Source: Rhodopila sp. | Lineage (GTDB): Bacteria > Pseudomonadota > Alphaproteobacteria > Acetobacterales > Acetobacteraceae | Direction: 5' to 3' | Assembly: GCF_965276935.1 (NCBI RefSeq) | Contig: NZ_CBDIBS010000004.1 | Span: forward strand, 481,306-545,305 | DNA: 64,000 nt | Shown here: piece by piece, positions 17,916-42,513 of the stretch | Layout of the letters: each line of letters opens with the position of its first letter | How positions within the stretch are numbered: position 1 is the stretch's first letter | The notes under the pieces: generated by a model | What the model saw: only the letters and a program-made list of their open reading frames with translations | The model's database searches: none | Told to the model about the DNA's origin: nothing | Program-made: the position numbers and the translations under genes

Positions 17916-19325
17916 TTGATTGAGTGCGAAATTTTTGACCACATCCTGTATTCGCGCGGAAAAATTCGGGGAAGTCTCCGAACGTGGGCGGAAGAAGTAC
18001 TGTGTGAAGCTGGTCAACGCCCAGCAGCGCACCATCTTTTTCTACTTGCTGAACTGGAACAACTAGCGGGCGGTTCCTCCGACCGGCTAATGGTTTTGAT
18101 GCCACCTGGATCGGCAAAATCCACGTATACATCTGTTCTATTTCCGGCATGGTGGTTCACGCAGCATCCGCAATCTGCAATCATCACTGCTTCCCACTCA
18201 GCAGGCCTCGCGTCGCACTTCAGTCGCCGCGTGCGTGCTCTAATTCTCGCGAAGGAGGCCTACCTCGGATACAGTGTAGCAGCAGGCCAGCGCTCGGCTC
18301 AAACATGGGCCACGACGACAGGTGGCGAATACTTCTCAACTGGTGTTCGGGGCGCAATCGCGGGCCGAAGAGCTGACCTGATTATTGTGGACGACCCTAT
18401 CAAATCCCTGGCCGATGCAGAAAGTTCGCATCAGCGTGACTACATTTGGGACTGGTTCAAGACCGACCTCACCACCCGCTTACGTCCGGGTGGAAAAATA
18501 GTCTTAATCATGACGCGATGGCATCCTGAGGACTTGGGCGGACAACTGCTCGCTCGAACACAGGCTGAATGGCGGGTCATTAGGCTACCAGCGCTTGCTG
18601 AAGCCAATGATCCATTGGGTCGACCGACAGGTGCTGCACTATGGCCTGCGTGGGAGGATCGTGAGGCGCTGATGCGCAAACGTAATCTTCTTGGGGAACG
18701 AGCGTGGGCTGCGCTGTTTCAACAGGATCCGCGTCCAGCCGGCGGAAAGTTATTTCTAGTTGATCGCCTTGGCGTTATTGATCGTCACGATTGGAATCTT
18801 TCACAGGCAACCACAAGAGCATGGGACCTGGCCGCAACCGGAGCAACCAGCCAAAACGATCCTGACTGGACAGTCGGCATCAAGTTAGCGCTACAGCCCG
18901 ACGGTCGCTGTGTTATCGTTGATGTGGTTCGTATCCGCGGCACACCTCGGCAAGTCGAAGAGCTCGTCGTCAGTACGGCACACAGTGATGGAACAAAAGT
19001 AATAGTAGCTATACCGGAAGATCCTGGTCAAGCCGGAAAAAGTCAAATGGCGTACTTGACGAGGCAACTCGCCGGCTTCCATGTCACTGCGGCACGAGAG
19101 ACGGGCTCAAAGGCGACCCGAGCAATGCCTGTTGCGTCGCAGATCGAAGCAGGAAACATATCAATGTTGCGCGCCGATTGGAACCGGGTGTTTGTCGAAG
19201 AGCTTCGTGATTTTCCCTTTGGTCGAAAGGATGACCAAGTGGACGCTCTAGTTCGGGCCTTCACAACTTTGTCTACTCGACTTCGTTCCGCTAAAGCGAT
19301 TAATATTCCGATGTTTAACCGATAG
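17916..19325 (+). CDS. Phage terminase large subunit
   Basis: Walker A MPPGSAKS, Walker B LIIVDDP, coupling IMTRWH, and nuclease RAWDLAA ... KDDQVDAL. Start codon uncertain. Confidence 0.93.
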   Translation: MIECEIFDHILYSRGKIRGSLRTWAEEVLCEAGQRPAAHHLFLLAELEQLAGGSSDRLMVLMPPGSAKSTYTSVLFPAWWFTQHPQSAIITASHSAGLASHFSRRVRALILAKEAYLGYSVAAGQRSAQTWATTTGGEYFSTGVRGAIAGRRADLIIVDDPIKSLADAESSHQRDYIWDWFKTDLTTRLRPGGKIVLIMTRWHPEDLGGQLLARTQAEWRVIRLPALAEANDPLGRPTGAALWPAWEDREALMRKRNLLGERAWAALFQQDPRPAGGKLFLVDRLGVIDRHDWNLSQATTRAWDLAATGATSQNDPDWTVGIKLALQPDGRCVIVDVVRIRGTPRQVEELVVSTAHSDGTKVIVAIPEDPGQAGKSQMAYLTRQLAGFHVTAARETGSKATRAMPVASQIEAGNISMLRADWNRVFVEELRDFPFGRKDDQVDALVRAFTTLSTRLRSAKAINIPMFNR

Positions 19326-19354
19326 AAGTCAGGAATGCCAGCTTTTGGATATGT

Positions 19355-20773
19355 ATGTTTGACACTCTATGCGAGCTGATCCCAACAGACCGCGACTATC
19401 CGGACAGAGTGCGCCAGCTCAACATTTTGAATCGTGTACTTGCCGGCACGTTGTATGATATTCTACCGTACCATTTTCATGAGGAGAGGAGCGAGAGCGG
19501 CGAATACATTCCACTAAGGAAGCGCCGGCCAAGCGTACGATATCCGCTGTGTAGAATCGTTGTCGAGGACAGTGTCTCTCTACTCTTTAGCGAGGGTCAC
19601 TTTCCGACCATTGACAGCACGGAAAGCGGTGTTCGACAAGTATTCGCTGACATCGTAAAAGAAAGTCATATCAATACAATAATGATAGACGCTGCAGTGA
19701 AAGGCGCAGTCGGCTCAGTTGCTTTATTGATGCGCGTGCTAAAAGGCCGGATCTTTATTGACGTGCTTGCGACCACTTATCTTACGCCAAGCTGGAATTT
19801 ATACGCGCTGGATACTCTATCGCAGGTTGACGAGCAATATAAAACGTCGGGAGCCGATCTAGTTCGGAACGGCTATACGATAGAAGACCCGAGCCAAGAG
19901 TTCTGGTTTGCTAGAAGGTGGGATACCGAAAGAGAAATTTGGTTTGAACCGTCGCCGGTTGGTGAGCCGAATCCCTTTCTCGTTGATAATGCCAGGACAG
20001 TCGTCCACAAGCTCGGGATCGTCCCAATCGTGTGGATTAAAAACCTTCCGGGAATGTCAGCGACCGGTAATTCCTGCGATGGGGGCTCCACTTTCGCGGC
20101 CGCTATGCATACGCAGGTTGAAATCGATTACCAGCTAAGCCAGGTAGGCCGTGGCTTGAAGTATAGCAGCGATCCAACCCTGCTGTTGAAGGACCCTGCA
20201 TTACACGACACGGATATTATAAAGGGTGCCGGAAACGCGTTAATCGTGTCAGAGAAAGGTGATGCCCGCCTTCTCGAGATCGGCGGGACTGCTTGCAACG
20301 CCGTTATTGACTATGTGCGTAATCTACGCGAACTGGCGCTAGAGAGCATTCACGGTAGTCGAGCCAGCCCTGAGCGAATGGCAACGGCGCAGTCGGGACG
20401 GGCGTTGGAGTTGCTTAACCAGGGGCTGATCTGGTTGGCTGACAATCTGCGGGTTAGCTACGGAGAGGTTGCTCTCATACAGCTTGCGCGCCTCATTGCT
20501 CGGGCGTCCCAAACATACACTCTTGTCGTGCTTGGCAAAGAAGTCGAGGCAATTGATCCTGGTGTGAACCTAAGTCTCAAATGGCCGCGGTGGTACCCAT
20601 TATCAGCTGACGATCGTCAGAAGGACGCGCAGTCTCTGACATCGCTTGTCGCCGCCGGCTGTATCAGTCGGGAGACGGTGCTGAAAGCTATCGCGAGCTC
20701 CTACGACATTGAATTTATTGAAGACGAGACTCAGTCAGTCATCAACAACAATCTTGGAGATCCAGATGGTTGA
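19355..20773 (+). CDS. Phage portal protein (SPP1 gp6-like)
   Basis: 472 aa directly after the terminase. IVPIVWIKNL, EIDYQLSQVGRGLKYSSDP and SGRAL motifs typical of portals. Confidence 0.8.
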   Translation: MFDTLCELIPTDRDYPDRVRQLNILNRVLAGTLYDILPYHFHEERSESGEYIPLRKRRPSVRYPLCRIVVEDSVSLLFSEGHFPTIDSTESGVRQVFADIVKESHINTIMIDAAVKGAVGSVALLMRVLKGRIFIDVLATTYLTPSWNLYALDTLSQVDEQYKTSGADLVRNGYTIEDPSQEFWFARRWDTEREIWFEPSPVGEPNPFLVDNARTVVHKLGIVPIVWIKNLPGMSATGNSCDGGSTFAAAMHTQVEIDYQLSQVGRGLKYSSDPTLLLKDPALHDTDIIKGAGNALIVSEKGDARLLEIGGTACNAVIDYVRNLRELALESIHGSRASPERMATAQSGRALELLNQGLIWLADNLRVSYGEVALIQLARLIARASQTYTLVVLGKEVEAIDPGVNLSLKWPRWYPLSADDRQKDAQSLTSLVAAGCISRETVLKAIASSYDIEFIEDETQSVINNNLGDPDG

Positions 20774-21176
20774 TCTTTCGGCGGACGAGATGATCCCCTC
20801 CAACCAAAGCGCTTCATCCCCAACTGCGCCTGAGGATGTGACTGCGGAGATGGCGAAGTTGCGTGCCGATTTCCAATCACGCTTGATTGCAGCAAACCTT
20901 CGTACAGAGGCCGTTCGCGCGGGAATGATAGATCTGGATGGGTTGAAGTTAATTAACTTGTCGGATGCTCAACTTGGCCCTGATGATAAAGTTGTTGGGA
21001 GCCGGCAAATCATGGACGATTTGCGACGTCAAAAACCATGGCTGTTTGGTGCAACGTCTTCGTCAAGCGCCGCTTTGGCACCAGCATCGCAACCAGTGCG
21101 TCGGAAATCAGCGCTGGAAATGACGAACGAAGAATATGTGGCAGCGCGAGCAGCTTTGACTAAAAGACGTTACTAA
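20766..21176 (+). CDS. Capsid scaffolding protein
   Basis: Small helical protein between portal and capsid. DDLRRQKPWLFG followed by a Ser/Pro tail, typical of scaffolds. Confidence 0.65.
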   Translation: MVDLSADEMIPSNQSASSPTAPEDVTAEMAKLRADFQSRLIAANLRTEAVRAGMIDLDGLKLINLSDAQLGPDDKVVGSRQIMDDLRRQKPWLFGATSSSSAALAPASQPVRRKSALEMTNEEYVAARAALTKRRY

Positions 21177-21219: not shown

Positions 21220-22542
21220 ATGGGTATCCAAAACTTTCCGATCTCGCTTCAGCCAATCATTCAGCAGGGCTTTCTTGAGAGAGAATTTCAGCAGGCACTT
21301 ATCTCGAAGCTGGGCTATAGGGCATGCGCGGATCGGGTGGACATTGCCGCAGGTATCGGCGAGACATTGATTAAAACACGTGCCGGTCTAAAGCCATCCG
21401 TCACAACGCCTATGGTCCCGTCCGCCAACACTAATCTTGAGAATGGTCTGACTCCAACAACCTGGGGCGTCGAACAGTATACGATCCAAATGAACCTTTA
21501 TGCTGCCACGACGGACCTAAACATGGTTACGGATCGTGTCGGTATTGCGTCTCAGTTTCTTCAAAACGCTTATGTCAATGGGGAACAGGCAGCACGTAGC
21601 CTCGACGAACTCGGGCGAAACGCGCTGTTTGGGGCATATTTAGGTGGCAATACGCGGGTGAAGGCGACTCTGACAAGCGCCAATCCCACGATCGCGGTCG
21701 ACGACATCCGCGGCTTTCAATTCGTGTTCTCGAACGGTGTGCAGTATCCGGTCAGTTCGACATACTCGATGAACGTATTTGTCAACGGTAATCCCTATCT
21801 CCTGGTCGGGGTCAATCAAGACCCAGTATCTTTATCGACCGCGCCAAACGGCCTATCAGGCACACTAACGACGTCAGCACCCGTCGCAGTCGCAGACGGA
21901 ACTGCCGCCAACACCGTCTTGGCTTCAACCGGGTCAACGATCGTGCGGCCTTCTCAGCGCACCAACACGTCGCAGATCTTGGCTTCCGACACTCTAACGA
22001 TGTCTTGCCTTCTGGACGCGGTCGCCAAGTTGCGTCTGAACGCGGTTCCCGAAATTGATGGTGCTTATAATTGTTATCTTGATCCGGTTTCGTCGCGTCA
22101 ACTTTTCGCCGATCCCGACTTCAAGCAGCTTTTTCAGGGAGCCACGTCCGCTAACCAGGTTTTCAAAAATGGCATGACCAACGACTTCCTCGGACTTCGG
22201 TTTGTGCCCACGACTGAGGCTTTTGTCCAGACGCACCCGACGCTATCCGGGCTGATGATTCGCCGACCTGTGATCTGTGGTCGCGGAGCGCTGATTGAAG
22301 GTGACTTCGCTGGAATGGCGGCGCAGGACATGGCGCCGGAAGACTCTATTGTGTCTATGGTGGATGGTATCGCGATGGTGACTCGTGAAGCTATCGACCG
22401 GCTGCAACAGATCATCGCGCAGTCTTGGTATTGGATCGGCGGCTTTTGTGCTCCTTCCGACACCACAACTAATCCCACCACCGTACCGACGGCGACCAAC
22501 GCTGCTTATAAGCGTGCGGTGGTTGTTGAACATGTCGGCTAG
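21220..22542 (+). CDS. Major capsid protein (probable HK97 fold)
   Basis: 440 aa after the scaffold, with a good RBS. LLDAVAKLRLNAVPEIDGAYNCYLDP..QL..DPDF resembles N4-gp56-like capsid proteins. Confidence 0.75.
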   Translation: MGIQNFPISLQPIIQQGFLEREFQQALISKLGYRACADRVDIAAGIGETLIKTRAGLKPSVTTPMVPSANTNLENGLTPTTWGVEQYTIQMNLYAATTDLNMVTDRVGIASQFLQNAYVNGEQAARSLDELGRNALFGAYLGGNTRVKATLTSANPTIAVDDIRGFQFVFSNGVQYPVSSTYSMNVFVNGNPYLLVGVNQDPVSLSTAPNGLSGTLTTSAPVAVADGTAANTVLASTGSTIVRPSQRTNTSQILASDTLTMSCLLDAVAKLRLNAVPEIDGAYNCYLDPVSSRQLFADPDFKQLFQGATSANQVFKNGMTNDFLGLRFVPTTEAFVQTHPTLSGLMIRRPVICGRGALIEGDFAGMAAQDMAPEDSIVSMVDGIAMVTREAIDRLQQIIAQSWYWIGGFCAPSDTTTNPTTVPTATNAAYKRAVVVEHVG

Positions 22543-22565: not shown

Positions 22566-22880
22566 ATGCCTATCGGTTCGGTTAGTCCATTTCGTCCCAC
22601 CGGCACCGCCAGCCTTTCTCTCTCGACCGCGAATGCCTCAGCCAACGTGCCGTTGGCGGGCGGCGGGGATACGGTTGTCGTCACGAACCCTTCCAATGTC
22701 CTTGCCTATGTCAGGTTTGGCGCTGATCAAACAGTCGCGGCCTCAACCTCTGACATGCCGATATTACCAGGTAGCCGGCTTATCTTGTCCGTCAACAGCC
22801 TGATTACGTATACGGCAGCGATCATGCCGTTGGGAACCGGGATCATCTTGTTTAGCCGCGGCGACGGGTCAGTCGTTTGA
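22566..22880 (+). CDS. Small beta-rich virion protein (capsid decoration candidate)
   Basis: 104 aa, beta-strand rich, immediately after the capsid gene. Function inferred from position. Confidence 0.4.
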   Translation: MPIGSVSPFRPTGTASLSLSTANASANVPLAGGGDTVVVTNPSNVLAYVRFGADQTVAASTSDMPILPGSRLILSVNSLITYTAAIMPLGTGIILFSRGDGSVV

Positions 22881-23257
22881 ACCCACTCTGTGATCATGAA
22901 AAGGTCGACATCCGCCGCTTCTGCGGTTATCCGGCCTATGGCGCAACACCAAGTGGAATGACGTCCTGGCGCTTTTTCACAGTATACGGATTACTCGAAT
23001 TCAGGATGACTAATCTCGCGCCGACAGAGATCAGCGTGGTCCGCCGCTACCTTGGGACGCTTAGCGCTCTAGAAATTGCTGTTCCTGCATCGGGCGATAA
23101 CCTTGACACGGATGAGGCGTCTGTATGGACGAGGAACCGAAGCGAACCGGATGACAGGTTGCGCTTGCTCGACGAGTGGAGGCGACGGCTATGCGGGTTC
23201 ATTGGCGTCCCGTCGGGCCCGTCACTATCCAGCGGCATCGGCAGGCTGATTGTTTGA
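22877..23257 (+). CDS. Head-tail adaptor/connector candidate
   Basis: 126 aa helical protein starting EKVDIRRFCGYP, in the neck position. Confidence 0.5.
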   Translation: MNPLCDHEKVDIRRFCGYPAYGATPSGMTSWRFFTVYGLLEFRMTNLAPTEISVVRRYLGTLSALEIAVPASGDNLDTDEASVWTRNRSEPDDRLRLLDEWRRRLCGFIGVPSGPSLSSGIGRLIV

Positions 23258-23260
23258 ACG

Positions 23261-23905
23261 ATGGACAGCCTGAAATTACAGGACCGCCACTACCGCGCCC
23301 TTGGCGCAGCAGCTCGGCGCGTTGGGGAGACAACGGATGCTTTTCGGCCGATCGACGCTGTTGACCCGCTGAACAAGAATAACCGGTTTCTTCGTCTGCA
23401 CGCATCGTTCTTTCCGGTGGAGGGCGGATCCAATCATCCGAGTGGCTACGGCATGGTACAATGGCAGGGTATCTTCGACGCCTCTTATACAAGACCTGGC
23501 GATTATCTCGTCCAGAAGCTGCGGACTTTCTTCATTGCCGCGCAGCAGCCGCTGTTGCCTGTTCTCTGCGTTGAGACAAACCGCATTATCTCAGTAACGC
23601 GGCCACACGTTCAAACGACGACAGCCAGCAATCCATATGGAGGTTACACAGACACCGGAACATCGGTTTTAATGGAAGGATGGCCGGCAAGTGTTCTCGG
23701 ACTTACTGGCCGGGGCGAGCCGGCCGCTGGATTACCAACCGACCAAACCATCCCATACCTGGTAATTCTAGTGCCGGCGCTACATCGGATCTTCCTATCA
23801 CCGGGCGATCTCGTGAGCGATGATATAGGGCGCAGCGCAGTCATCACCGGCTCTGAATTGACTGCTTTGGGATGGCGGTTGAGTGCAAAAATGGCAACCA
23901 CTTGA
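23261..23905 (+). CDS. Head closure/neck protein candidate
   Basis: 214 aa with FDASYTRPGDYLV and GW..SA at the C-terminus. Neck position, with overlapping stop/start. Confidence 0.45.
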   Translation: MDSLKLQDRHYRALGAAARRVGETTDAFRPIDAVDPLNKNNRFLRLHASFFPVEGGSNHPSGYGMVQWQGIFDASYTRPGDYLVQKLRTFFIAAQQPLLPVLCVETNRIISVTRPHVQTTTASNPYGGYTDTGTSVLMEGWPASVLGLTGRGEPAAGLPTDQTIPYLVILVPALHRIFLSPGDLVSDDIGRSAVITGSELTALGWRLSAKMATT

Positions 23906-24714
23906 TGGCAGACATATCTGACGTCGAACAAGCCCTGACGAACAGCGTAACGGCTATGCTTTATCCCGAGGGATCGTCACAAGCTAGCATCGCTGGCATA
24001 ACGTGTCGCATTTATAGGGGATGGCCTAATACAGCCACATTAAGTTCGGATTTAAGCGCTGGCATTGTCAACGTTACCATCACTTCGAACAATGACTCGG
24101 GCAAGACGACAACTCGATATCTGGTGGAATGGCAATATGACGACATCGTACCAGATTTGACGGCAAGTGTGACAGGCCAAACTATTTTTATCGCCGGCAC
24201 TGCCGCTGTTGGCAATGTTGTCGGAGCTTTAATAGATGGCCGAGCGTTTGCATACCGCATATCTTTGGGTGATACACCAGACCTGATCGCGGCCAATCTA
24301 TGCGCTGCCGTGCAGCCCACGTTCATCGCCGAACTGAGCGGGCCACGAATAAATATGCCTGGCGCCACATCAGTCGTAGCACGCGTCGTCAACGATAATC
24401 TTGCATGCTACGAGGGGCGGCGCCAGGAGAAGGACGTCCGTGTTGTACTATGGTGTCCGAACCCGACCGTGCGAGACTCTCTTGCGGCCGCGATAGATCT
24501 GTCCGTGGCTCAGTCGCCCTTTCTATTGTTGTCTGATAGGACGAATGCGCGCATGACCTACCGGAGTAGCGCAACCTTCGACCAATCTCAGAACGCGCTT
24601 CTTTACAGGCGAGATCTAGTATACACCGTCGAGTATGCAACTGTCATATCCGCGAGCTTACCCTCGATGCTGTTCGGTGCTTCCGTAATTAACGGCCAAA
24701 TCACCTATGGTTAG
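23905..24714 (+). CDS. Tail terminator/neck protein candidate
   Basis: MADISDVEQAL start, RIYRGWP and YRRDLVYTVEY. Lies upstream of the sheath gene. Confidence 0.5.
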   Translation: MADISDVEQALTNSVTAMLYPEGSSQASIAGITCRIYRGWPNTATLSSDLSAGIVNVTITSNNDSGKTTTRYLVEWQYDDIVPDLTASVTGQTIFIAGTAAVGNVVGALIDGRAFAYRISLGDTPDLIAANLCAAVQPTFIAELSGPRINMPGATSVVARVVNDNLACYEGRRQEKDVRVVLWCPNPTVRDSLAAAIDLSVAQSPFLLLSDRTNARMTYRSSATFDQSQNALLYRRDLVYTVEYATVISASLPSMLFGASVINGQITYG

Positions 24715-24877: not shown

Positions 24878-26440
24878 ATGCCCATTACTCAGCAAGGCAG
24901 CGTTAATACAACGTCACTGATTGTCCCGGATCTATACGTTCAAATCGTATCTCCCCAAAATCTTGTCCTGAACGGCGTACCGACGAACGTTCTGGGAATT
25001 GTGGGAACTGCCGCTTGGGGTCCGACAAATGAGCCAATTACCGTGGCGACAATGTCTGATTACGCCCAGAAGTTCGGGCCAATCAGTGCTCGCAAACATG
25101 ACATGGGTACTCAGGTTGCCGTTGCAGTTCAGCAAGGCGCTCAAAACTTTCGCTGTGTGAGAGTTACGGACGGAACTGACTCGGCAGCAAGTATGTCTGT
25201 CCCAGGCACCAATGCCGGCTTCACCGCACTATATACCGGTTCCCTAGGTAACAACATAAGTGTTGCCCTTAGCACAGGAAGTAAGACAAGCACTTGGCTG
25301 CTGTCAGTAACTGTTCCGGGCCTGCCGGCAGAACTATACGACGGTTTAACGGGTGATGGTGCAGCCTTCTGGATTGGACTAGCTGCAGCAGTGAATTCGG
25401 GTACAGGGTCACAACGTGGTCCGTCACAACTGATTATTGCTAGCTCTGGAGGGACTACCGCGTCACCCGCGCCATTTGCACTTAGTTTGGGTGCGGGATC
25501 ACCAGGATCTGACGGGGCCGCGATCACAACCAGTGCGCAAGAGGTCGGGGTCGACGGAACTTCCCGTACTGGCATGTATGCTTTAAGAGGCCAGGGCTGC
25601 GGCCTTGCTTTGCTCGCAGATTGCGACGACGCGGCGACGTGGACAACGCAGGCTGCCTTCGGTCTTCAGGAAGGCATCTATATGATCCTGACCACGCCTG
25701 CAGGTGATACGATAGCAAATGCTGTCGCCGCCATGAACCAAGCCGGTCTGAGCAGCTACTCCGCCAAATTAATGTTTGGAGACTGGCTTTGGTGGTCAGA
25801 TCAGGTGAACGCCACAACTCGGCTGGTATCACCGCAGGGCTTCGCTGCCGGTCGATTGGCAAACCTTTCACCCGAGCAGTCAAGCCTGAATAAGCCAATT
25901 TATGGCATTATTGGTAGCCAACGCTCGGGTGCTCCCGGCTCAGGCTGGAACACAGCCTATGCATCCGCTGACCTTAGTGTCCTGCTCGGGACTGGCATAG
26001 ACGTGATCTGTAGTCCCCAGCCGGGTGGATCGTTCTGGGGGGTACGCGGTGGCATTAATACGTCGTCCAACGCGGCTATCAATGGCGACAACTACACACG
26101 CCTAACGAACTATATAGCGGCAACGCTCGCATCCGGGATGGGACATTACGTTGGTCAGGTCATCAACCAAAGCTTGTTTCAGCAGGTTCGATCAACGCAG
26201 CTTTCATTTCTAAATAATATGCTAAGTCAGGGACTACTTGGGAGTACAAACGGCTCACTGCCGTTTAGCGTGATCTGCGACACATCGAACAATCCTGCCT
26301 CTCGAACTAGTCTTGGCTATGTTCAATCTGATGCGCAGGTGCAATATCAATCCATCAACGAGCGATTTATAGTCAATGTTGAAGGCGGCCAAACTGTCCA
26401 GGTATCTGTCCAGACTCTACCTGCCGGGCAGATTAACTAG
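24878..26440 (+). CDS. Contractile tail sheath protein
   Basis: PDLYVQIVSP, LGIVGTAAWGPTNEP, RCVRV, PQGFAAGRLA and NYTRLTNYIA. 520 aa, followed by a tube-sized gene. Confidence 0.85.
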   Translation: MPITQQGSVNTTSLIVPDLYVQIVSPQNLVLNGVPTNVLGIVGTAAWGPTNEPITVATMSDYAQKFGPISARKHDMGTQVAVAVQQGAQNFRCVRVTDGTDSAASMSVPGTNAGFTALYTGSLGNNISVALSTGSKTSTWLLSVTVPGLPAELYDGLTGDGAAFWIGLAAAVNSGTGSQRGPSQLIIASSGGTTASPAPFALSLGAGSPGSDGAAITTSAQEVGVDGTSRTGMYALRGQGCGLALLADCDDAATWTTQAAFGLQEGIYMILTTPAGDTIANAVAAMNQAGLSSYSAKLMFGDWLWWSDQVNATTRLVSPQGFAAGRLANLSPEQSSLNKPIYGIIGSQRSGAPGSGWNTAYASADLSVLLGTGIDVICSPQPGGSFWGVRGGINTSSNAAINGDNYTRLTNYIAATLASGMGHYVGQVINQSLFQQVRSTQLSFLNNMLSQGLLGSTNGSLPFSVICDTSNNPASRTSLGYVQSDAQVQYQSINERFIVNVEGGQTVQVSVQTLPAGQIN

Positions 26441-26448: not shown

Positions 26449-26880
26449 ATGATGGCACTGACCACCTTTTCAATTGGACGCGACACCCAATTGGTTATCA
26501 TGGGACCGACGGGACGCATTGACATCAGCCACGTTACAGAGTTTGAAAGCCGTCAACTCACAGCAGCGGTTCGTGTAGCCCGGATTGATGGAACACAGCT
26601 CGCAGCGGAACTTCCAAAGGGTTGGGAGGGCACCTTTGAAGTGGAGCGAGGCACGTCAACGCTTGACGATTTTATAGCAACGCTGGAGCAGAATTACTAT
26701 AACGGCACTACCTCACAGTCCGGTACTATGTACCAGTATATTACCGAAAGTGATGGGTCGGTATCGACGTATCAGTTCATTGGCGTTGTCTTCAAGCTAG
26801 CCAGCGCGGGTGTTTGGAAGGGTGATGCAAGCGTCAAGCAGAAGCTTGATTTCTACGCAACTCAGAAGCAGAGGATTTGA
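26449..26880 (+). CDS. Tail tube protein
   Basis: 143 aa beta-rich protein (GWEGTFEVERG) directly after the sheath. Confidence 0.7.
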   Translation: MMALTTFSIGRDTQLVIMGPTGRIDISHVTEFESRQLTAAVRVARIDGTQLAAELPKGWEGTFEVERGTSTLDDFIATLEQNYYNGTTSQSGTMYQYITESDGSVSTYQFIGVVFKLASAGVWKGDASVKQKLDFYATQKQRI

Positions 26881-34180: not shown

Positions 34181-34853
34181 CGTTGATGACATAAGCGGGC
34201 GTATACGAGCGGTCCTCCCCAGCGGGTGGTTTGCGGACCTCACTCCAAACCTGAATGCTGTACTCAAGTGCCTTGCCACCCCGTGGTCCTGGCTTTATTC
34301 GCTTGTTCAATATGTCATCCAGCAGACTCGGATTGCCACCGCGGACGGTGGATGGCTTGACCTCATAGCCTTCGATTTTTCCGGCGACGCTCTTCGGCGC
34401 CATGACGGCGAGGTAGATTCAGCCTATCGCGGTCGGATTAGATGGACGCTCATGCAAGGCGCCGCTACGCGCATTGCTATTGTGACCAATGTTCAGCGGC
34501 TTACTGGCTTCGTGCCAGTAGTCTTCGAGCCGGCAAATTGCGGTGACACCGGTGCGTATGGAGGCGCGGCGTCCGGGTCGTTCACGAGCTACGCGGGCCT
34601 GGCGTACGGCATGACGGGAGGGTGGGGAAATCTTGGGCTTCCGTATCAGTTCTTCATCACCGCGAAGCGTCCAGTAAATCAGGGCGTTGCGTCACTAGCG
34701 GGCTACGGAACGTCTCCCGGAGGATATGGAGTAGGTATGATCGCTTATGTGGATCTGGCGTTGCTCGTAGGCAGTGTGTCGGATAACGATATTGCTGCGT
34801 TCGTTAGTAACATTGTTCCCTTGAACACCACTGCTTGGCTTCGCCTCAATTAA
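34170..34853 (+). CDS. Baseplate wedge gpI-like protein
   Basis: RIATADGGWLDLIAFDF..R..GE.DSAYRGRI, directly after baseplate J. Confidence 0.65.
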   Translation: MRGDVDDISGRIRAVLPSGWFADLTPNLNAVLKCLATPWSWLYSLVQYVIQQTRIATADGGWLDLIAFDFSGDALRRHDGEVDSAYRGRIRWTLMQGAATRIAIVTNVQRLTGFVPVVFEPANCGDTGAYGGAASGSFTSYAGLAYGMTGGWGNLGLPYQFFITAKRPVNQGVASLAGYGTSPGGYGVGMIAYVDLALLVGSVSDNDIAAFVSNIVPLNTTAWLRLN

Positions 34854-34887: not shown

Positions 34888-36147
34888 ATGGATCGTAATA
34901 TCGTGTACCCTGGCAGCATTCCACTCGATACGGATCTGCTAGCGCTCAATCGCAATACAATGGTCGGTCTTGGATTTCTAGCGCAGGCAGTGCTTGGCGG
35001 AGCCACCGTTGTAGATGGGCTGGCGTGTCAACCAACGACGCCGGCTTCGTTGAGCATTGTCATCGGGCCTGGTAGTATGACTCAGTTCGCAGCGATCGAC
35101 CTAAGTGCTTATGGATCCCTTCCGGCGGATTCGAATGATTTCATGTTAAAGCTTGGTGTAAATATTGGATCAAGCGTGTTCAGCTTACTTGGTCCCAGCA
35201 GCGTCGGCCAGTCGATAACTTACCTTGTTGAGGCAGCGTTTCTGGAGTCGGATGTAAATCCAGTTGTTCTGCCGTACTATAATGCGAGCAATCCGGCACA
35301 AACGTTTAACGGACCTGCTAACTCGGGTACTGCGCAAAATACAATCCGCAAGCAGAGTGTACAGATTCAGGTTAAACCTGGTGCACCAGCTAACACTGGA
35401 AGTCAATTGGCACCTGCGGTGGATTCAGAATGGACCGGCTTGTATGTTGTAACAGTTGACTACGGACAGTTGGCCATAACGGCAGCGAATATCGTTGTCT
35501 TGCCCACCGCACCTTTTCTAAATTGGAAGTTACCCATGCTGCGTCCCGGGTTTGGATCCGGTGTACGGAGCTTCACCAGCAGCGGAATTTTCTTTATTCC
35601 GGCAGGTGTAGCTCAGGTGGAGGTAGAAGTGTGGGGCGGGGGCGCTGGCAGCTATGCTTCGATATCAGGCTTACCAAGTGGAGGAGGGGCCGCGGGCGGG
35701 TATGCTCGGAAGTGTATCGTCGGGCTGACGCCGGGCCAGCCTGTTGTGATTACTGTTGGTGCTGGGGGTATGGGTGGAACAACCGGCGGATCGGGAGCTG
35801 GACCCGGCGGCACCTCCAGCTTTGGATCCTTCGTAAGCGCCACAGGCGGACAGTTGAATAGCCAGGCGACATTCCTACTGCCGCAGAACGGTGGAACGCC
35901 AGCCGGTTATGGCTGGAATGGCGATGTTAACTTCTACGGTTCCGACGGCCAGGCTGGAATGGGACCTGTTTTTCAAGGAGGGATGGGTGGAGCAGCTCCC
36001 ATGGGAGGAGCACGAAATAGCGGAACCTATGGCAATACTGGATATTTACCTGGCGGGGGAGCATCCGGCGCAGGTACAGGGGCCAATGGCACTACGGGTT
36101 ACAATGGCGCAGCGGGAGGCGGCGGACTGGTTGTAATTCGGTGGTAG
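34888..36147 (+). CDS. Tail fibre protein with glycine-rich C-terminal domain
   Basis: Baseplate-attachment N-terminus, then VEVWGGGAG..GGGAAGGYARK..TPGQPVVITVGAGG and multiple GG repeats. Confidence 0.75.
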   Translation: MDRNIVYPGSIPLDTDLLALNRNTMVGLGFLAQAVLGGATVVDGLACQPTTPASLSIVIGPGSMTQFAAIDLSAYGSLPADSNDFMLKLGVNIGSSVFSLLGPSSVGQSITYLVEAAFLESDVNPVVLPYYNASNPAQTFNGPANSGTAQNTIRKQSVQIQVKPGAPANTGSQLAPAVDSEWTGLYVVTVDYGQLAITAANIVVLPTAPFLNWKLPMLRPGFGSGVRSFTSSGIFFIPAGVAQVEVEVWGGGAGSYASISGLPSGGGAAGGYARKCIVGLTPGQPVVITVGAGGMGGTTGGSGAGPGGTSSFGSFVSATGGQLNSQATFLLPQNGGTPAGYGWNGDVNFYGSDGQAGMGPVFQGGMGGAAPMGGARNSGTYGNTGYLPGGGASGAGTGANGTTGYNGAAGGGGLVVIRW

Positions 36148-36323
36148 CAAATCTGCGAACCATCGACATTCGGTAAAAGCCTTGAAGGTCTATGAAACCT
36201 TTGGCTTAAGATCCTGAAGTTCACCGCCGAACACATTCTGCAAGGCATGGATTGCAGCTTACTACCTGTCAATCGCCTTTCGCAGCCCACAACTTACCTT
36301 GATGGGCATGTTACGGAATCACA

Positions 36324-36809
36324 ATGTCAACGCTCGCCACCCATATATGGAAACCAAGCCACGCTCGCTTGGTTATTATTGACTCATTCATACCAGTTCC
36401 CCGCGGCTCTGCTGCTGTGGCTTTGCCGCCCCTGAACTGGCCCACCAAGGATCCGGGTGACGTTCTCGATTACATATTCGATATAGCGCCGGCGATTGTC
36501 GGAAACGACGGCGATGGCATTGCCACATTGGACGTCAGCCTGGCGCCTTCTGCTCCCGGAGATCTAATGCTCCAGAGTATGACTGCCGACGGCAGCCGTG
36601 TCATTATCTGGCTTTCCGAGGGACAAGCGGGTACGATCTACACGGTTACGTTCATGATTAAGACGATCAACGGCCGATCCATACAACGAAGTGTTCTTCT
36701 TCCTGTTTTGATGTTGTCCTCACCCCCAATTCCAGCCAATGCCATTCTAGCTGCATCAGGCATCGTTCTAACCGATCAGAACGGCAATCCCATCGTAGCA
36801 AACGACTAA
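36324..36809 (+). CDS. Fibre-tail adaptor-like protein
   Basis: WPTKDPGDVLDYIFD motif and a beta-sandwich pattern, upstream of the large fibre genes. Confidence 0.55.
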   Translation: MSTLATHIWKPSHARLVIIDSFIPVPRGSAAVALPPLNWPTKDPGDVLDYIFDIAPAIVGNDGDGIATLDVSLAPSAPGDLMLQSMTADGSRVIIWLSEGQAGTIYTVTFMIKTINGRSIQRSVLLPVLMLSSPPIPANAILAASGIVLTDQNGNPIVAND

Positions 36810-36827
36810 GAGGTCGGCCTAAAGCCG

Positions 36828-36847
36828 GCCGTTTGCCTGCAAACGGC
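36828..36847 (+). other. Intergenic stem-loop between the adaptor and large fibre genes
   Basis: GCCGTTTG-CCTG-CAAACGGC perfect 8-bp stem, with no U-tract. Confidence 0.45.
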
Positions 36848-36903
36848 GAAAGTTTGGATCAAGCGCAACAGCATAATTAGGTCGCGCCGGAGAAAGATAA
36901 TCC

Positions 36904-39900
36904 ATGCCTACTATTGACGAGCTGGCCCCCGCGACATCAGCTTCAGATACAGACGAATTCATCGTCAGCCAGGCCGGTACCGCTAGGTCCATTTCCCGTT
37001 CACAGGTTTTGAACGGCGTGCAGACACAATTGGCGGTTCCGACGGGATCCTTGCTTGGTCGCATCAGTTCCGGCACTGGCTCGCCCGAAGTTATTTCTAT
37101 CGGACCAAACCTTAGCTTTAATGGTAGTACGTTGTCTGCTACGGCAACACCGTTTTTAATTGATGCGCTACAGAGTGGCTTGGTCCCGGCTTCTGGCGAT
37201 CTGCTGTCGATGTCGCAAGCCGGCACAAATGTAGCTGTAACCTACGGACAATTTTTGAACGGGTTTTCCGGCCTGTCTAATGTTAACATCTCACAAGCAC
37301 TTGTCACGCCAACTGGCTCAATGGGTAGTCAGACACTTGCCAGCCTGACGGCGAAGATCCTGCCAACTTCCGGAGGTAGCCTCACTGGTGCGCTTTCGCT
37401 TGCTGCTAATCCGACGCTGCCGACCCAAGCTGCCAACAAAGCATACGTGGATCTGCAAAATTCAAACGTACTTTCATTAACGGGCGGCTCATTATCCGGA
37501 ACCCTCTCTCTTTCCTCCACGCCGCAACAACCATTGCAAGCCGCGACGAAAGGATATGTTGACGCGGCGATTGCGATCACTCTACCCGCCACTGGAGGAT
37601 CGCTGTCAGGAGCACTTCTTCTGAATGCCGATCCTGTCACTACGTTACAGGCTTCAACAAAACATTACGCCGATCTTAAGCTTTCTCGAACCGGCGATAC
37701 ATTGGCCGGCGTACTAACACTTGCCGCTGATCCGATGCTGGCCTTGCAGGCGGCTACGAAAAATTACGTTGATACACAATTTGCAGCAGCTTTACCGAAA
37801 GCGGGGGGCACCCTGCTGGGCAGTCTGGCGCTGGCATTCGACCCAACCCTCAATGCGCAGGCGGCGACAAAACAGTATGTCGATCAGAGACTTCTTCGGA
37901 CCGGAGACACTCTTGCCGGCGCATTAGTACTCGCGTCCGATCCGGTCACAAGCAGCCAAGCGGCTACAAAAAATTACGTTGATACACAAAGTCTTGCCAG
38001 TGTATCGCGGGCTGGATCGTCAATGACAGGCTACCTACTGCTCGCCTCTGATCCCGCGCTCGCGCTTCAAGCATCGACGAAGCAATATGTCGACTTACGT
38101 GTCGCCCGCAATGGCGATACATTGACGGGAGCGCTGTATCTGGCTGCAAACCCGACTGCTCCCCTCCAAGCGGCTACAAAGCAGTACGTCGATGGACAGA
38201 CGGCGAATGCCCTGACAAGTGCGGGAGGAACATTTACCGGCTCGGTCTTACTGGCAAGCGATCCGCTGACTGCGCTTCAGGCTACTACAAAACAATATAC
38301 CGATGCTCGCGTTTTACGGGCCGGAGATACATTAACCGGCGCATTGGTTTTGGCGTCGGATCCCATCTCACCGGGCCAAGCGGCGACAAAGAATTATGTC
38401 GATATCCAACTGAGCAGCACGTTGCCGAGGACGGGCGGAACATTGAGCGGCAGCCTAACTCTTAATGCCGACCCCATCGCCGCCAGCCAAGCGGCAACCA
38501 AGCATTACGTCGACGCGCAGACATCAACCACATTATCCTTGCTGGGCGGGACCTTAACGGGTGCATTGTCACTGCTTACAGTTCCGACCCTTCCTACTCA
38601 GGCAGCGACCAAACAGTATGTTGATACACAAGTCGCTACCGCTTTGCCGGTTGCTGGCGGCTCGCTCAGCGGCATATTAAGCCTCGCCGGCGTGCCGACG
38701 TCACCCCTGCACGCAGCAAGTAAAGCATATGTCGATGCAAACCCTTCGTCAAATGGTGTCATTAACGTTGCGTTGGCGCCATATGGCGCCCTACTGAACG
38801 GAGTTGCGGATGATACCGCTGCCTTTAAAGCGGCGTACTTAGCAGCGCCCGCAGGATCGGCAATCTACGTTCCACATGGAACCACAGTGCTGCAGCAACC
38901 AGGCAGTTGGGGAATATCGCTGACAAAGCGGGTCAAATGGTTTGTGGACGGCACTACTCTGGCGGACGGAACACCTTTGGCATCTGCGGTCCCGTCTGGC
39001 GGTAACTTGGCCGAATTGGTCCTACCAGGTTTTGTTGTAGGCAACACGTCGACCAGCTTTTCGGTCTCGCAGGGAAGTTCCCAAGCGACTGATCTCGCTG
39101 TTCAACAGTCCGCCTATATCGTTAGCCACAATGGTGGAACAAATGGCGCGGTAGTGGCGAATGCCCGCGTCGACACCATTATCTACAATAGCCCTGCCAC
39201 CTATATATGGGGCGGCATCGATCGGCTCATTTGGGCGGGCATCCAAACTCCTGTAGCCGCTACTCCAGCCCAACATGTCGGGCGCTACATTCAGACGGTT
39301 CGCCAAGTCGTGGCAAATGGCACAAACGGACTGCCGCTCCCGCAACCTCAACTTTGGGCAGCATGTCTTGAATACCGCGATGCAACCGGCCTGCCCTCGA
39401 GTTCGGCAAATGCAGCATTAACAGTAGAGATGGACTGGTTTGGAAACGGTCTGGATGATGCAAACAGCCGAGCAATACAGAGTCTGGTCATTGGTCAGAG
39501 TAACACCGCTGGTGCGCCCGTTCAGGTTTCCACCATTATTGGGGTATCGCTAAGTGCCGGATCGTCCGGAAGTGCCATAACAGTCTTCAAGGTAGACGTT
39601 CCCTTCTCGAACGCTGTTTTGGACACCACAAATGCAGCGCAAGTAGGTTCTGCACCCGTCATCAAGATGTCTGCTGGTCAAGCAATTGCGTTCGAGGGAT
39701 CCAACTCCTGTAGGCTTTTTTACGACAATACGACCAACACGAATGGTTCGCTGAAATGGACTACTGGATCTACAACATGTGTCGTTGGGAAGGGAATTTC
39801 AGTTGGTTGGGAAAATGTTTTTGCCACATCAAATTCCATACCAGCTTCTATCGCAGGTAATATTCTATTTCTTGTAGGCGCAAGTGCTTACACTTTAACT

Positions 39901-40296
39901 TTGCCTGCGGCTTCAGCGGTAGCCGCGGGTACTGGATTTACCTTTTCTGCCCTTGGAGCTGGAGCAGTAAGTATAACACCGGCGGGCACCGACGGAATTG
40001 ACTGTGGCCCAGTAGTCCTGAGAACCAACGACAGGTACCATCTTGTCTCCGATGGATCATCAAGCTGGCGTGAAGTCTTTAGGACCAATGCTGTTGGTCC
40101 GAAGTGGACCGCTCCTCCTGTTTTACCGTCATACACGGTTGCGACACTTCCGACAGGTCAAACGGCGGCGGGTCAAGCTTTTGCTACGAATGGCAGGAAG
40201 CCTACCGAAGCAGCCGGCACGGGAACTGGCGTGCAGGTATTTTTCGACGGTCAACACTGGATCTCCTGTTGTAGCGGAGCCGTGGTGGCTGCCTAG
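36904..40296 (+). CDS. Large repeat-containing tail fibre/spike protein (1130 aa)
   Basis: 13 fibre repeats, then a pectate-lyase-3-like entry motif VINV..YGA..NGVADDTAAF..IYVPHG. Confidence 0.75.
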   Translation: MPTIDELAPATSASDTDEFIVSQAGTARSISRSQVLNGVQTQLAVPTGSLLGRISSGTGSPEVISIGPNLSFNGSTLSATATPFLIDALQSGLVPASGDLLSMSQAGTNVAVTYGQFLNGFSGLSNVNISQALVTPTGSMGSQTLASLTAKILPTSGGSLTGALSLAANPTLPTQAANKAYVDLQNSNVLSLTGGSLSGTLSLSSTPQQPLQAATKGYVDAAIAITLPATGGSLSGALLLNADPVTTLQASTKHYADLKLSRTGDTLAGVLTLAADPMLALQAATKNYVDTQFAAALPKAGGTLLGSLALAFDPTLNAQAATKQYVDQRLLRTGDTLAGALVLASDPVTSSQAATKNYVDTQSLASVSRAGSSMTGYLLLASDPALALQASTKQYVDLRVARNGDTLTGALYLAANPTAPLQAATKQYVDGQTANALTSAGGTFTGSVLLASDPLTALQATTKQYTDARVLRAGDTLTGALVLASDPISPGQAATKNYVDIQLSSTLPRTGGTLSGSLTLNADPIAASQAATKHYVDAQTSTTLSLLGGTLTGALSLLTVPTLPTQAATKQYVDTQVATALPVAGGSLSGILSLAGVPTSPLHAASKAYVDANPSSNGVINVALAPYGALLNGVADDTAAFKAAYLAAPAGSAIYVPHGTTVLQQPGSWGISLTKRVKWFVDGTTLADGTPLASAVPSGGNLAELVLPGFVVGNTSTSFSVSQGSSQATDLAVQQSAYIVSHNGGTNGAVVANARVDTIIYNSPATYIWGGIDRLIWAGIQTPVAATPAQHVGRYIQTVRQVVANGTNGLPLPQPQLWAACLEYRDATGLPSSSANAALTVEMDWFGNGLDDANSRAIQSLVIGQSNTAGAPVQVSTIIGVSLSAGSSGSAITVFKVDVPFSNAVLDTTNAAQVGSAPVIKMSAGQAIAFEGSNSCRLFYDNTTNTNGSLKWTTGSTTCVVGKGISVGWENVFATSNSIPASIAGNILFLVGASAYTLTLPAASAVAAGTGFTFSALGAGAVSITPAGTDGIDCGPVVLRTNDRYHLVSDGSSSWREVFRTNAVGPKWTAPPVLPSYTVATLPTGQTAAGQAFATNGRKPTEAAGTGTGVQVFFDGQHWISCCSGAVVAA
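37372..38742 (+). repeat. 13 tandem 33-37 aa repeats G(G/D)TLTG.L.L..DP...QAATK.YVD
   Basis: Counted directly in the translation. Includes a 29/30-nt identical pair at 37750-37779 and 37960-37989. Confidence 0.9.
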
Positions 40297-40338
40297 GGTT
40301 CTCCTCAAAGCCGAAAACAAGTATCAGAAAGTAGTTTG

Positions 40339-42513
40339 ATGCCTACAATTTCGCAGCTTCCAGCCGCTGCTTCAGTTGCACCTGCGGACGAGATGCCGAT
40401 AAGTCAAGGTGGCAGCCTCTGCGCCGTATCTGTTGGGGCACTGCTGGCTTCCGCGCAACCGGCAATTTCGATTCAATCATCTGCGCTACTTGGGCGAACC
40501 AGTTTGGGTTCCGGCGGACCCGAGCAGATTGATGTTGGCATTGGACTTACGTTGTCCGGGGGAACGGTCGTCGCCACTGGGGCCGATCATGCAGCTTATC
40601 CTTCGACCTCAAGTTTCGTGCTTAAATCTGATTTGGTGATATCCAGTCAGGGAAGTCAGATGCTCATGCCGACCGAGTTCCTCCGTGAGCTCTTTTCGGC
40701 GGGGCAGAATGTGACCATTGATGGTAACGGTGTAATCTCAAGCGTTACAGGCGGCGCCTCCATCTCGCCCGTTTTGCTTGGTAGCGCCATCGGTGCGCTG
40801 GAAGTTATTTCGTCCTTGGCCGTCGGTGATCTCATTCCGATAAGCCAATCCGGGGCTGATCATGCTATCAAATATGCGGACTTTTTGAACGGTCTTACTA
40901 TTGATCAGGCTCCGTCGGCCCTGCCTGCGTCTAATTCGGATAGGTTGTGGGTTGCGCAAGACGCCAACACCATGGGAAGCCAGAGTTTCGGCGCCATATG
41001 GGCATGGATTTCCAGCCAAATGCCCGGCTACACGATACCTGTAGCTGAGATCACCGTAAGCGTTGGCCTGAATGCCATCGGACATAACGGGCGCATTCTG
41101 GTCTGTAGTCAGCCGGTGACACTAACGCCTCTTCCCGCACAGATGGGAGACGGATTTCAGTGTCAAGTCATTAATGTCAGCAGTGGGAACGTGACGCTTG
41201 GCTCCGGCGTTCTTACCTCGAGCGGAGGCAACATAATTGGGCCACAGCAGTCGGCCGTTGTTCAATGCTTCACGTATTCAGCGGGTACAGTTGTATATGC
41301 TTTAATGTCTCAGGCCTCTGTAGCGGTTGCCATACCGGGTCAGGTAACTGGATTGGTTGCTTCAAGCGTGTCCGCTACAGCCGTAACTTTGTCATGGCAG
41401 ACGCCATTAATCGGTGGCTACCCCTCAAACTACTTGGTGTTCTACAGGCAAACTGGGTCTTCTGGCTGGATCGATAGCCCTAGTGCGATAACAGGAACGA
41501 GCTCTCAGCTAGCCAATCTTCAAGCTGGAACGAGCTACGACTTTCAGGTGCAGGCGGTCAACGGGAGCGGTACGGGAATTGCGTCGCAAAGCTTGACTGC
41601 GTCAACGACAACGGTGTCCGCATTACCGCTCCAAGTACCAGCCCAAGTTACTGGCCTTGCGGCATTGACAGCATCGAGCACAAGCGTACAGCTTTCTTGG
41701 TCTGGGCAAACAGGAAGTAATGCGGCTGCTACTTATTCTATTCAGTACAGGATTACAGGATCTACATCGTGGACGTCGTCTGTATCTGGAATTGCTGGAA
41801 GCAGCTACGGCGTTACTGGCTTACAAGCTTCTACCGGCTACGACTTTTCAATTTTTGGAGTAAATACGGGTGGGGCGGGCTTGGCCTCAGTCGTGGTATC
41901 GGTTACGACTCCGGCTGCTCAACTTTTGGTACCAGGGCAAGTGAGCAATTTTGTAGCGTCGGTCACATCTAGTATTGCCATTCTGCTTTCCTGGTCCACC
42001 CAAACTGGGCCAAATGCCTCAACAAGTTATACAGTTCAATATCGGATGACCGGATCCGCTGCCTGGACATCATCCATCGCCGGGATCGTCGCAGTCAACT
42101 ACAATGTCACAGGTTTACAGCCCTCAACCAGCTATGACTTCTTGGTGTTCGGCGTTAACACGATTGGCGTGGGACCAAGTTCCTCTGTGACCTCAGCTGC
42201 CACGGAGGCAATTGGAACTCCCGTTTCATCAGTAACTTGGAATTTGGGGCCGAGCGGACCTTATACACGCGGCAATGGCACAGTTGCGCTCAATGCTTTT
42301 ATCTCGCCAGCCTCTGCGCCAGTGCAATTTGGTCTGTCTACATCAACTACGATTGAGCCTACTTCCTGGACCGTTGGCCAGTCTATTAATAATACCGCCC
42401 TTTGGGGCGCCTACGTGCCAACCCCGGCTATAGCCGGACGCTGGTATGCCTGGGTAGAGGGCACTGATGGTAGTAGTCCGGCTGTATTCGCGGCGTCATT
42501 CATAGTCCAGTAG
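40339..42513 (+). CDS. Fibronectin type III repeat fibre/adhesin protein
   Basis: Three FN3 repeats (PGQVTGL..LSW..Y.V.YR.TG..W..GL...T.YDF.V..VN) at about 41332-42200. The N-terminus is homologous to the 36904 protein. Confidence 0.8.
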   Translation: MPTISQLPAAASVAPADEMPISQGGSLCAVSVGALLASAQPAISIQSSALLGRTSLGSGGPEQIDVGIGLTLSGGTVVATGADHAAYPSTSSFVLKSDLVISSQGSQMLMPTEFLRELFSAGQNVTIDGNGVISSVTGGASISPVLLGSAIGALEVISSLAVGDLIPISQSGADHAIKYADFLNGLTIDQAPSALPASNSDRLWVAQDANTMGSQSFGAIWAWISSQMPGYTIPVAEITVSVGLNAIGHNGRILVCSQPVTLTPLPAQMGDGFQCQVINVSSGNVTLGSGVLTSSGGNIIGPQQSAVVQCFTYSAGTVVYALMSQASVAVAIPGQVTGLVASSVSATAVTLSWQTPLIGGYPSNYLVFYRQTGSSGWIDSPSAITGTSSQLANLQAGTSYDFQVQAVNGSGTGIASQSLTASTTTVSALPLQVPAQVTGLAALTASSTSVQLSWSGQTGSNAAATYSIQYRITGSTSWTSSVSGIAGSSYGVTGLQASTGYDFSIFGVNTGGAGLASVVVSVTTPAAQLLVPGQVSNFVASVTSSIAILLSWSTQTGPNASTSYTVQYRMTGSAAWTSSIAGIVAVNYNVTGLQPSTSYDFLVFGVNTIGVGPSSSVTSAATEAIGTPVSSVTWNLGPSGPYTRGNGTVALNAFISPASAPVQFGLSTSTTIEPTSWTVGQSINNTALWGAYVPTPAIAGRWYAWVEGTDGSSPAVFAASFIVQ

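Follow-up and report, generated by a model that had tools for sequence, protein, structure and literature searches.

A head and contractile-tail operon beside tgt in Rhodopila: candidate structural locus of a domesticated, myovirus-derived particle

We analyzed a 64,000-nucleotide stretch of DNA from a Rhodopila species of the Acetobacteraceae (contig NZ_CBDIBS010000004.1, positions 481,306 to 545,305 of the forward strand; hereafter the window) in which a block of virion genes directly follows the housekeeping gene tgt. Family scans identified 22 collinear, co-directional, and intact virion genes on the plus strand of window positions 17916-42513, running from a large terminase gene to tail fibers, so that this 24.6-kb cluster comprises head, contractile tail, and fiber genes. 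A preliminary description made from the sequence had proposed the cluster to be a domesticated DNA-packaging particle, and its account of gene content and coordinates agrees with our scans. The same is true of its statement that the usual equipment of a prophage is lacking: family scans found no integrase, repressor, or replication gene within the window, a tRNA search found no tRNA there, and a repeat search found no direct repeats bracketing the cluster that could serve as att sites.

The head module opens with the gene for the large terminase subunit TerL (17916-19325), which combines an ATPase with an RNaseH-like nuclease (Pfam Terminase_6N/6C; phrog_38, E=1.7e-96). It is followed by genes for the portal protein (19355-20773; phrog_145, 50% identity to gp25 of the Ralstonia phage Raharianne), a scaffolding protein (20709-21176; a weak match to Pfam Phage_scaffold, with Raharianne gp26 as homolog), and a major capsid protein of 440 amino acids (aa; 21220-22542; phrog_1357). 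Four head-completion or neck genes (22566-22880, 22877-23257, 23261-23905, and 23872-24714; phrog_14539, 14605, and 13532) are collinear with Raharianne gp31-33 and lead over to the tail, which begins with the contractile sheath (24878-26440; phrog_23, E=1e-52, with weak Pfam sheath domains and 54% identity to Raharianne gp36), the tail tube (26449-26880; phrog_12993, homologous to Raharianne gp37), and the tail assembly chaperone (26877-27239; phrog_20383). The chaperone gene has an extension in the -1 frame (27197-27382) whose peptide, GKLARHPVLIDCLYLVR..., is kept in five relatives. Next comes a short tape-measure-like protein of 296 aa (29220-30110), which is conserved at its C-terminus only (LHLDGxxLGRW...GxTGxDPR) and returned no Pfam or PHROG matches.

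The baseplate module (30049-34853) is of the P2/Mu type (Pfam Phage_base_V and Baseplate_J; phrog_6, 120, 6142, and 26379) and is collinear with Raharianne gp42-47, encoding in order a gp42-like protein (30049-30903), a hub-like protein (31090-32130), the gpV spike (32136-32663), gpW (32670-33041), gpJ (33047-34180), and a gpI-like protein (34170-34853). The fiber module that closes the cluster (34888-42513; Pfam Gly_rich_2, Gp77, and fn3; phrog_863 and 16641) consists of a Gly-rich fiber (34888-36147), a Gp77-like adaptor (36324-36809), a repeat fiber of 1130 aa (36904-40296), and an FN3 fiber of 725 aa (40336-42513). The 1130-aa fiber gene contains a repeat array at 37628-38625, in which blocks of 42-46 nt recur at spacings of 99, 111, and 210 nt.

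Between tgt and the terminase gene, a promoter scan located a predicted cluster promoter on the plus strand (17755-17790) with an A-rich tract, a -35 element TTGACT (17762), a 17-nt spacer that includes CCCCAAA, and a -10 element TATATT (ending at 17790), which by prediction is a strong, near-consensus promoter of the sigma-70 type. The block TAGGAAAAAAGGCTTGACCAAACNCCCCAAAAT..TAnnnT is kept in all 21 of the 21 Rhodopila loci that we compared and the rest of the tgt-TerL spacer is unalignable; across these loci, the conserved block reads as an A-tract, TTGACC, an 18-nt spacer containing CCCCAAAAT, and a TAnnnT -10 element. In eleven relatives, the motif occurs exactly once per genome and always before TerL. 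A second near-consensus copy is found in this genome only, on the minus strand at C4:1094636 (contig and position), before low-GC small open reading frames (ORFs) including a helix-turn-helix (HTH) protein. Given a single motif per genome in the eleven relatives and an extra copy unique to this genome, we rejected the idea of a wider regulon sharing the cluster promoter. The island beside the second copy (C4:1093500-1111000) carries an integrase gene (C4:1109597-1110886), a 637-aa terminase-like ORF, and a 622-aa tape-measure-like ORF.

The position of the cluster is fixed within the core of the genus. As the preliminary description had noted, it begins beside housekeeping tgt, and the genes to its left (mutS, glnD, hemY, tsaD, rlmJ, murJ, trpS, rsmI, queG, queF, and tgt) are true single-copy housekeeping genes of the host. 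Directly after the block trpS-lppC-rsmI-queG-queF-tgt, the cluster is present in this genome and in 20 other Rhodopila species-level genomes, among them the cultured species R. globiformis DSM 161. The capsid gene was present in 16 of the 24 Rhodopila species of a first sample; a high-quality sample included 13 Rhodopila genomes, all with the gene. The preliminary description's remark that such clusters recur beside tgt in Acetobacteraceae holds for the core Rhodopila clade; other genera of the family carry the cluster at other fixed sites.

Across the Rhodopila loci, nearly all genes are full length in every species. Portal and capsid genes are intact in 21 of 21 loci, the head-completion and neck genes in 19-21, and TerL in 20, where the one frameshifted copy comes from a nanopore metagenome-assembled genome (MAG); even the tape-measure-like frame stays open over 291-336 codons in 20 of the 21 loci despite its low identity (in other genera, the homologous ORF measures 300-557 aa). 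Protein identity to the relatives' loci is about 40-85% for cluster genes and 54-81% for the flanking housekeeping genes, and the fibers are the least conserved members of the cluster (40-74%). Pairwise Nei-Gojobori estimates of dN/dS, made where dS is near saturation (about 2) in cluster and flanks alike, range from 0.045 to 0.21 for cluster genes, far from 1, compared with 0.07-0.14 for flanking genes. The terminase, portal, capsid, sheath, and tube genes are the most constrained (TerL 0.08, major capsid 0.05, and sheath 0.05), which suggests that what selection maintains is a tailed particle filled with DNA rather than just a tail. Concatenated trees of flank and cluster genes have all well-supported clades in common and similar branch lengths.

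We then surveyed the family with a profile of the capsid protein against 301 high-quality genomes of the order. The profile matched 145 of them, and the matches fall into two kinds of element. Those of genera g42 and g61 are phiKX1-like (after a Komagataeibacter phage discussed below) with a different terminase, in some cases with an upstream DnaB-like helicase or small terminase (TerS) gene, and are real prophages. In 65 of the 301 genomes, belonging to about 25 genera, the cluster is of the type seen in the window and almost always present once and intact; in genera g43 and g35, it occupies a host site that is conserved within each genus. Over 30 genomes from 18 genera, the capsid tree had 12 of 27 splits in common with the tree of the host protein GlnD, as against a maximum of 3 in 2000 label shuffles; 12 of the 16 strongly supported capsid splits recurred in the GlnD tree, and conflicts were mostly within genera. 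Capsid identity to this genome (66-83%) likewise runs parallel to that of GlnD (68-87%). Related contigs are also plentiful in IMG/VR (506), where the closest are at most about 28 kb long, begin at TerL, and contain the same structure-only unit. Within Rhodopila, genome G011 carries at C16:151-187 kb a second, distant capsid gene (54% identity) with two DUF6362 genes 20-34 kb upstream, and this element is probably a complete related prophage.

Three regulator genes stand directly before the terminase gene in genera g43 and g35: an XRE/DicA-like repressor gene that divergently faces a GcrA-like HTH gene and a gene for a DUF6362 protein (phrog_6836); in g35, these are followed by a small ORF of phrog_15261, placed where a small terminase gene would sit. 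The same three genes in the same arrangement are found in our genome at C4:1128489-1130180, 626 kb from the cluster, between housekeeping genes and with host-level GC content. This module is single-copy and intact in 16 of 16 Rhodopila genomes examined, at a distance of 0.6-1.8 Mb from the cluster or on another contig, with a DUF6362 protein that is 72-91% identical and a module dN/dS of 0.11-0.29. In the 301-genome sample, a strong DUF6362 homolog is present in 63 of the 65 cluster-bearing genomes and in 11 of the 236 others (Fisher p about 1e-50, without correction for phylogeny), and it lies 4-7 kb from the capsid gene in seven genera, 12-33 kb in four, and 59 kb to 2.7 Mb in the rest. Such co-retention after physical separation suggests a continuing functional link between the switch and the structural operon. 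From losses we drew no support for this link: DUF6362 is intact in three MAGs without a capsid match and in one genome with a decayed capsid gene, whereas two other genomes with decayed cluster copies have lost it or have it in broken form, numbers that are too small and confounded by MAG gaps. A literature search found no paper mentioning DUF6362.

The functions that a phage would need beyond its virion were also sought elsewhere in the genome. Cognate replication or integration genes at another site, which the preliminary description had regarded as potential evidence against its proposal, did not turn up: no homologs of Raharianne or phiKX1 genes for early functions or replication exist elsewhere in the genome, though early genes unrelated to these are possible, and a search for a second copy or a missing phage half returned only host DnaB and scattered unrelated matches. 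The small ORF that precedes TerL in other genera was considered as a small terminase and set aside, since it matches only phrog_15261 (unknown function) and has no homolog here. Other genera encode a GH108 endolysin and membrane proteins after the fibers, and homologs of these cluster-end genes occur here as a stand-alone pair of a GH108 endolysin (with PG_binding_3) and a holin-like membrane protein at C4:163901-165060. This pair adjoins a gene for a 1129-aa adenylate-cyclase/STAND-NTPase protein.

The surroundings of the cluster are host DNA of unusual composition. Right-hand neighbors are a Liv-type ABC transporter and a Calvin-cycle (cbb) operon; the operon (48790-55000) lies just beyond a rearranged junction and encodes a LysR/CbbR-type regulator, fructose-1,6-bisphosphatase, phosphoribulokinase, and a CbbX-like AAA protein. 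On the left, we considered whether tgt-queF-queG might prolong the element as a phage module for 7-deazaguanine modification of DNA and rejected this reading because Tgt is full-length and canonical (E=7e-145), single-copy, and part of the trpS-lppC-rsmI-queG-queF-tgt block of all relatives. A second queF copy, 60% identical to the one adjacent to tgt, is located at C2:819306-819755. The preliminary description had judged the composition of the cluster by eye to be like that of core genes, which is not the case: at 53.8% GC compared with 64% for the genome, the cluster is lower than every other 25-kb segment of the genome. It looked core-like because its left neighbors, ~50 kb of single-copy housekeeping genes, are likewise unusually AT-rich (55-59% GC), and it is only these that its composition resembles. 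The resulting trough (window 1-43000; C4:448-524 kb) falls gradually towards the cluster and returns abruptly to 62-64% right where the cluster ends, at ~43000; a trough over flank and cluster is also seen in G003/L044 and L041 and not in about 17 other Rhodopila species.

Two events have altered this particular copy. Where the preliminary description had seen a unidirectional operon, the chaperone and tape-measure-like genes are separated by a nested IS5-family insertion of ~1.8 kb on the minus strand (27427-29213), with inner transposase ORFs at 27487-28092 and 27771-28361 (also minus strand; Pfam DDE_Tnp_1 and DUF4096). This insertion sequence (IS) is single-copy in the genome and missing at the equivalent place in relatives, and we found no clean terminal repeats or target duplications. 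The right end, in turn, is rearranged. In five relatives, the cluster ends with one extra gene, whose 687-aa product has an esterase-like GQSN motif, and beyond it lie a cytidine-deaminase-like gene, recA, and genes for flagellar export; here, the esterase-like gene is gone from the cluster, and we call the junction rearranged because these genes sit on other contigs. Among six relatives whose right flank we examined, only G003 likewise has a rearranged one. A lone 735-aa homolog of the esterase-like protein (46% identity) is encoded at C2:267040-269247, beside sucCD/mdh and with host-level GC. Despite insertion and rearrangement, every ORF of this copy is still open, and the genes past the IS have diverged from the sister lineage much like those upstream, with saturated dS.

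The closest sequenced phages are Raharianne (Rahariannevirus) and the Komagataeibacter phages phiKX1 and phiKX2, with which the structural module is collinear gene for gene. Identities to Raharianne and phiKX1, respectively, are 60% and 52% for the capsid, 54% and 52% for the sheath, and 50% and 40% for the portal, and baseplate J is 40% identical. These are complete phages of 46-53 kb with an integrase or transposase, repressors, replication genes, TerS, and lysis genes, and phiKX1 and phiKX2 are inducible with mitomycin C (PMC8566455). Their tape measures have 636-742 aa, compared with the 296 aa of the tape-measure-like protein in the cluster, and the TerL of the cluster belongs to a different family from that of Raharianne and phiKX1. 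We rejected an intact temperate prophage of this kind on account of the boundaries of the cluster, with tgt 323 bp before TerL and ABC-transporter and cbb genes downstream.

The cluster shares its general plan with the gene transfer agents (GTAs) RcGTA and CcGTA (Rhodogtaviriformidae), namely a chromosomal, structure-only head-tail operon with vertical inheritance, purifying selection, and distant regulators. In Caulobacter, RogA and GafYZ form an operon of a repressor and two small DNA-binding proteins (PMC11150451), and the XRE/GcrA-like/DUF6362 layout resembles it, although no sequence relationship was found. A homology of DUF6362 or the GcrA-like protein to GafZ or GafY is accordingly unsupported, with no NCBIfam match and no match of PF19889 in Caulobacter. 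The particle genes themselves are also not homologous: RcGTA is siphovirus-like and about 15 kb in size, whereas the 24.6-kb cluster encodes a contractile tail with a P2/Mu-type baseplate and a capsid related to those of Raharianne and phiKX1. Among RcGTA markers, a TerS-like g1 is lacking, and GTA_TIM (g15) is found nowhere in the genome. With sheath and P2/Mu-type baseplate present, GTA_TIM absent, and myovirus-type phages as nearest relatives, we rejected an RcGTA-type GTA. To our knowledge, the well-studied proteobacterial GTAs (RcGTA and relatives, and BaGTA) go back to few domestication events, none of them with a contractile tail.

Another likeness is to PBSX of Bacillus subtilis and FpGTA of Faecalibacterium, whose domesticated loci encode head-plus-tail particles packaging host DNA. 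PBSX combines a contractile tail with an Xre repressor. Although it packages 13.4-kb fragments of host DNA, its action is that of a tailocin (PMC12946183). In this Firmicutes system, the cluster itself includes the lysis genes and both terminase subunits, whereas the Rhodopila cluster contains no lysis genes and its switch is unlinked; by gene layout, the one-locus plan of PBSX, with small terminase, lysis genes, and repressor together, is thus absent in Rhodopila. R-type tailocins, extracellular contractile injection systems (eCIS), and type VI secretion systems (T6SS) were rejected as explanations, given that TerL, portal, scaffold, and capsid are present and among the most constrained genes.

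Defective prophages, too, are inherited vertically in enterobacteria, where they occupy orthologous sites and show signs of selection. A Sphagnum virome study described ubiquitous phage-like regions of Acetobacteraceae that have structural and packaging genes but lack modules for excision or replication, and it drew no conclusion on their nature (PMC12142844). Compared with both, the conservation of our cluster is far deeper, with a genus-wide site, family-wide inheritance by tree, and saturated dS. Compared with the Sphagnum regions, which that paper did not analyze for inheritance or function, it adds a complete virion gene set and an unlinked regulator module. Our literature search found no paper describing such an element; what we add is a conserved promoter, congruence of capsid and GlnD trees at the level of the family, genus-specific fixed sites, and a co-retained, often detached regulator module.

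Our preferred explanation, which we hold with moderate confidence, is that the cluster is the structural locus of a host-domesticated, myovirus-derived particle (a "viriform") that works like a GTA. Its components differ in strength. That the cluster has been domesticated is very likely: it resides in the chromosome, is inherited vertically, and is under purifying selection, and gene searches of window and genome found no capacity for autonomous replication, integration, or excision. The fixed site, dN/dS, largely congruent trees, sheath and baseplate, and missing GTA_TIM thereby support the earlier proposal of a domesticated, myovirus-derived element distinct from RcGTA. The contrary outcomes that the preliminary description had listed and that our sequence comparisons cover, from patchy distribution with incongruent trees to dN/dS near 1, were not observed. 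That it encodes a DNA-packaging particle is probable, judging from the genes kept under constraint, and that this particle actually transfers genes approaches an even chance. In the scenario we have in mind, a temperate Raharianne/phiKX1-like phage would have turned into an ordinary, vertically inherited chromosomal operon that the remote switch activates in a subpopulation of cells. TerL, without a recognizable specificity subunit, would fill heads from host DNA by headful, the particles would leave the cell through lysis genes encoded elsewhere, and they would then deliver DNA to related cells or kill them.

Several observations weigh against this explanation. In all species, the GC content of the cluster is 3-5 points under that of its flanks, which is unexpected for a very old resident. 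Copies have decayed in the Rhodopila genomes G008, G012, and G020, and the cluster is missing from G014, G015, and G024, all of them fragmented MAGs. Approximately unbiased (AU) tests reject strictly identical topologies of flank and cluster (p about 0.01-0.02), so that some exchange between species, or a model artifact, is conceivable. No small terminase was found for the Rhodopila cluster, where the 323-bp gap between tgt and TerL holds no coding remnant, and no lysis genes were identified within it; we regard a role of the C4 endolysin/holin-like pair as its unlinked lysis cassette as unproven because just 5 of 16 Rhodopila genomes have an orthologue of the endolysin. Comparisons with the Pfam model and with Caulobacter detected no relation of DUF6362 to known GTA activators. 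The IS insertion of this genome may keep the 13 genes beyond it from being transcribed. Finally, the head may be roomy enough for the whole 24.6-kb cluster, unlike those of classical GTAs, because the capsid is closely related to those of 46-53 kb phages; the regulator module, for its part, lies 0.6-1.8 Mb away.

The alternative closest to our explanation is a killer particle like PBSX (a phibacin), retained since its contractile tail kills competitors and with host DNA in the head as an undelivered by-product. Structurally, GTA-like and PBSX-like particles fit the gene set equally well, and sequence cannot tell them apart. The contractile tail with its full P2/Mu-type baseplate and large, fast-diverging fiber set would suit a weapon, the low conservation of the fibers (40-74%) is what strain-specific targeting would predict, and PBSX provides a precedent both for control by an XRE-type repressor and for tailocin action by a particle that packages 13.4-kb host fragments (PMC12946183). 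For killing, however, head genes should be as dispensable as they are in R-type pyocins. Constraint is instead strongest on TerL, portal, and capsid (dN/dS 0.05-0.08), and the cluster has no lysis cassette of its own; we consider this alternative unlikely.

Less likely still, the structural module might be kept for another purpose, either because a resident phage or satellite supplies TerS, replication, and lysis in trans or because it provides superinfection exclusion. A helper is not far-fetched when the genus includes the related, probably complete prophage on G011 contig 16 (capsid 54% identical, two DUF6362 copies), when the second promoter motif of our genome lies beside an integrase-bearing island (C4:1094-1111 kb), and when some other genera keep the small phrog_15261 ORF at the position of the small terminase. 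But the promoter motif is single per genome in relatives, the cluster persists across species while prophages come and go, and homologs of the closest phages' early genes are absent from this genome; a defensive role, for its part, would not need about 22 intact virion genes. An inert remnant, that is, a truncated Raharianne-like prophage that has lost its left arm and is slowly decaying, would account for the low GC of the cluster relative to the genome, the IS insertion and rearranged right end in this genome, and the decayed copies in a few species. It is nevertheless highly implausible because site, reading frames, low dN/dS, and promoter have been kept at saturated synonymous divergence: with dS at about 2, nearly all 22 genes are full length in ~20 species at dN/dS of 0.05-0.2, and the unlinked regulator module has been retained alongside.

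More speculatively, we consider it possible, if somewhat doubtful, that our preferred explanation extends to an ancient, family-wide GTA of Acetobacteraceae, spread over 25 or more genera, Rhodopila among them, and abundant in peat and soil. Such a GTA would have a contractile tail and a phage-sized head that moves tens of kilobases of chromosomal DNA with each particle, an XRE/GcrA-like/DUF6362 switch that arose independently of RogA/GafYZ and yet functions in a similar way, and the standing of a second, non-homologous lineage of alphaproteobacterial GTAs.

If the cluster is indeed a domesticated particle locus, it would represent a new GTA or viriform lineage, derived independently from a myovirus and kept through the history of a large part of the Acetobacteraceae. 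Because the distance between switch and operon ranges from direct adjacency to megabases, depending on the genus, the element would also serve as a natural comparison of how phage regulation is rewired. "Viral" contigs of this type would recur in all samples of peat and Sphagnum habitats because they are in fact host genes. Since the cultured R. globiformis DSM 161 carries the locus, these ideas are directly testable. For the acidophilic peat and soil bacteria that dominate Sphagnum microbiomes, the particle could be a means of exchanging genes in large fragments or of killing strains.

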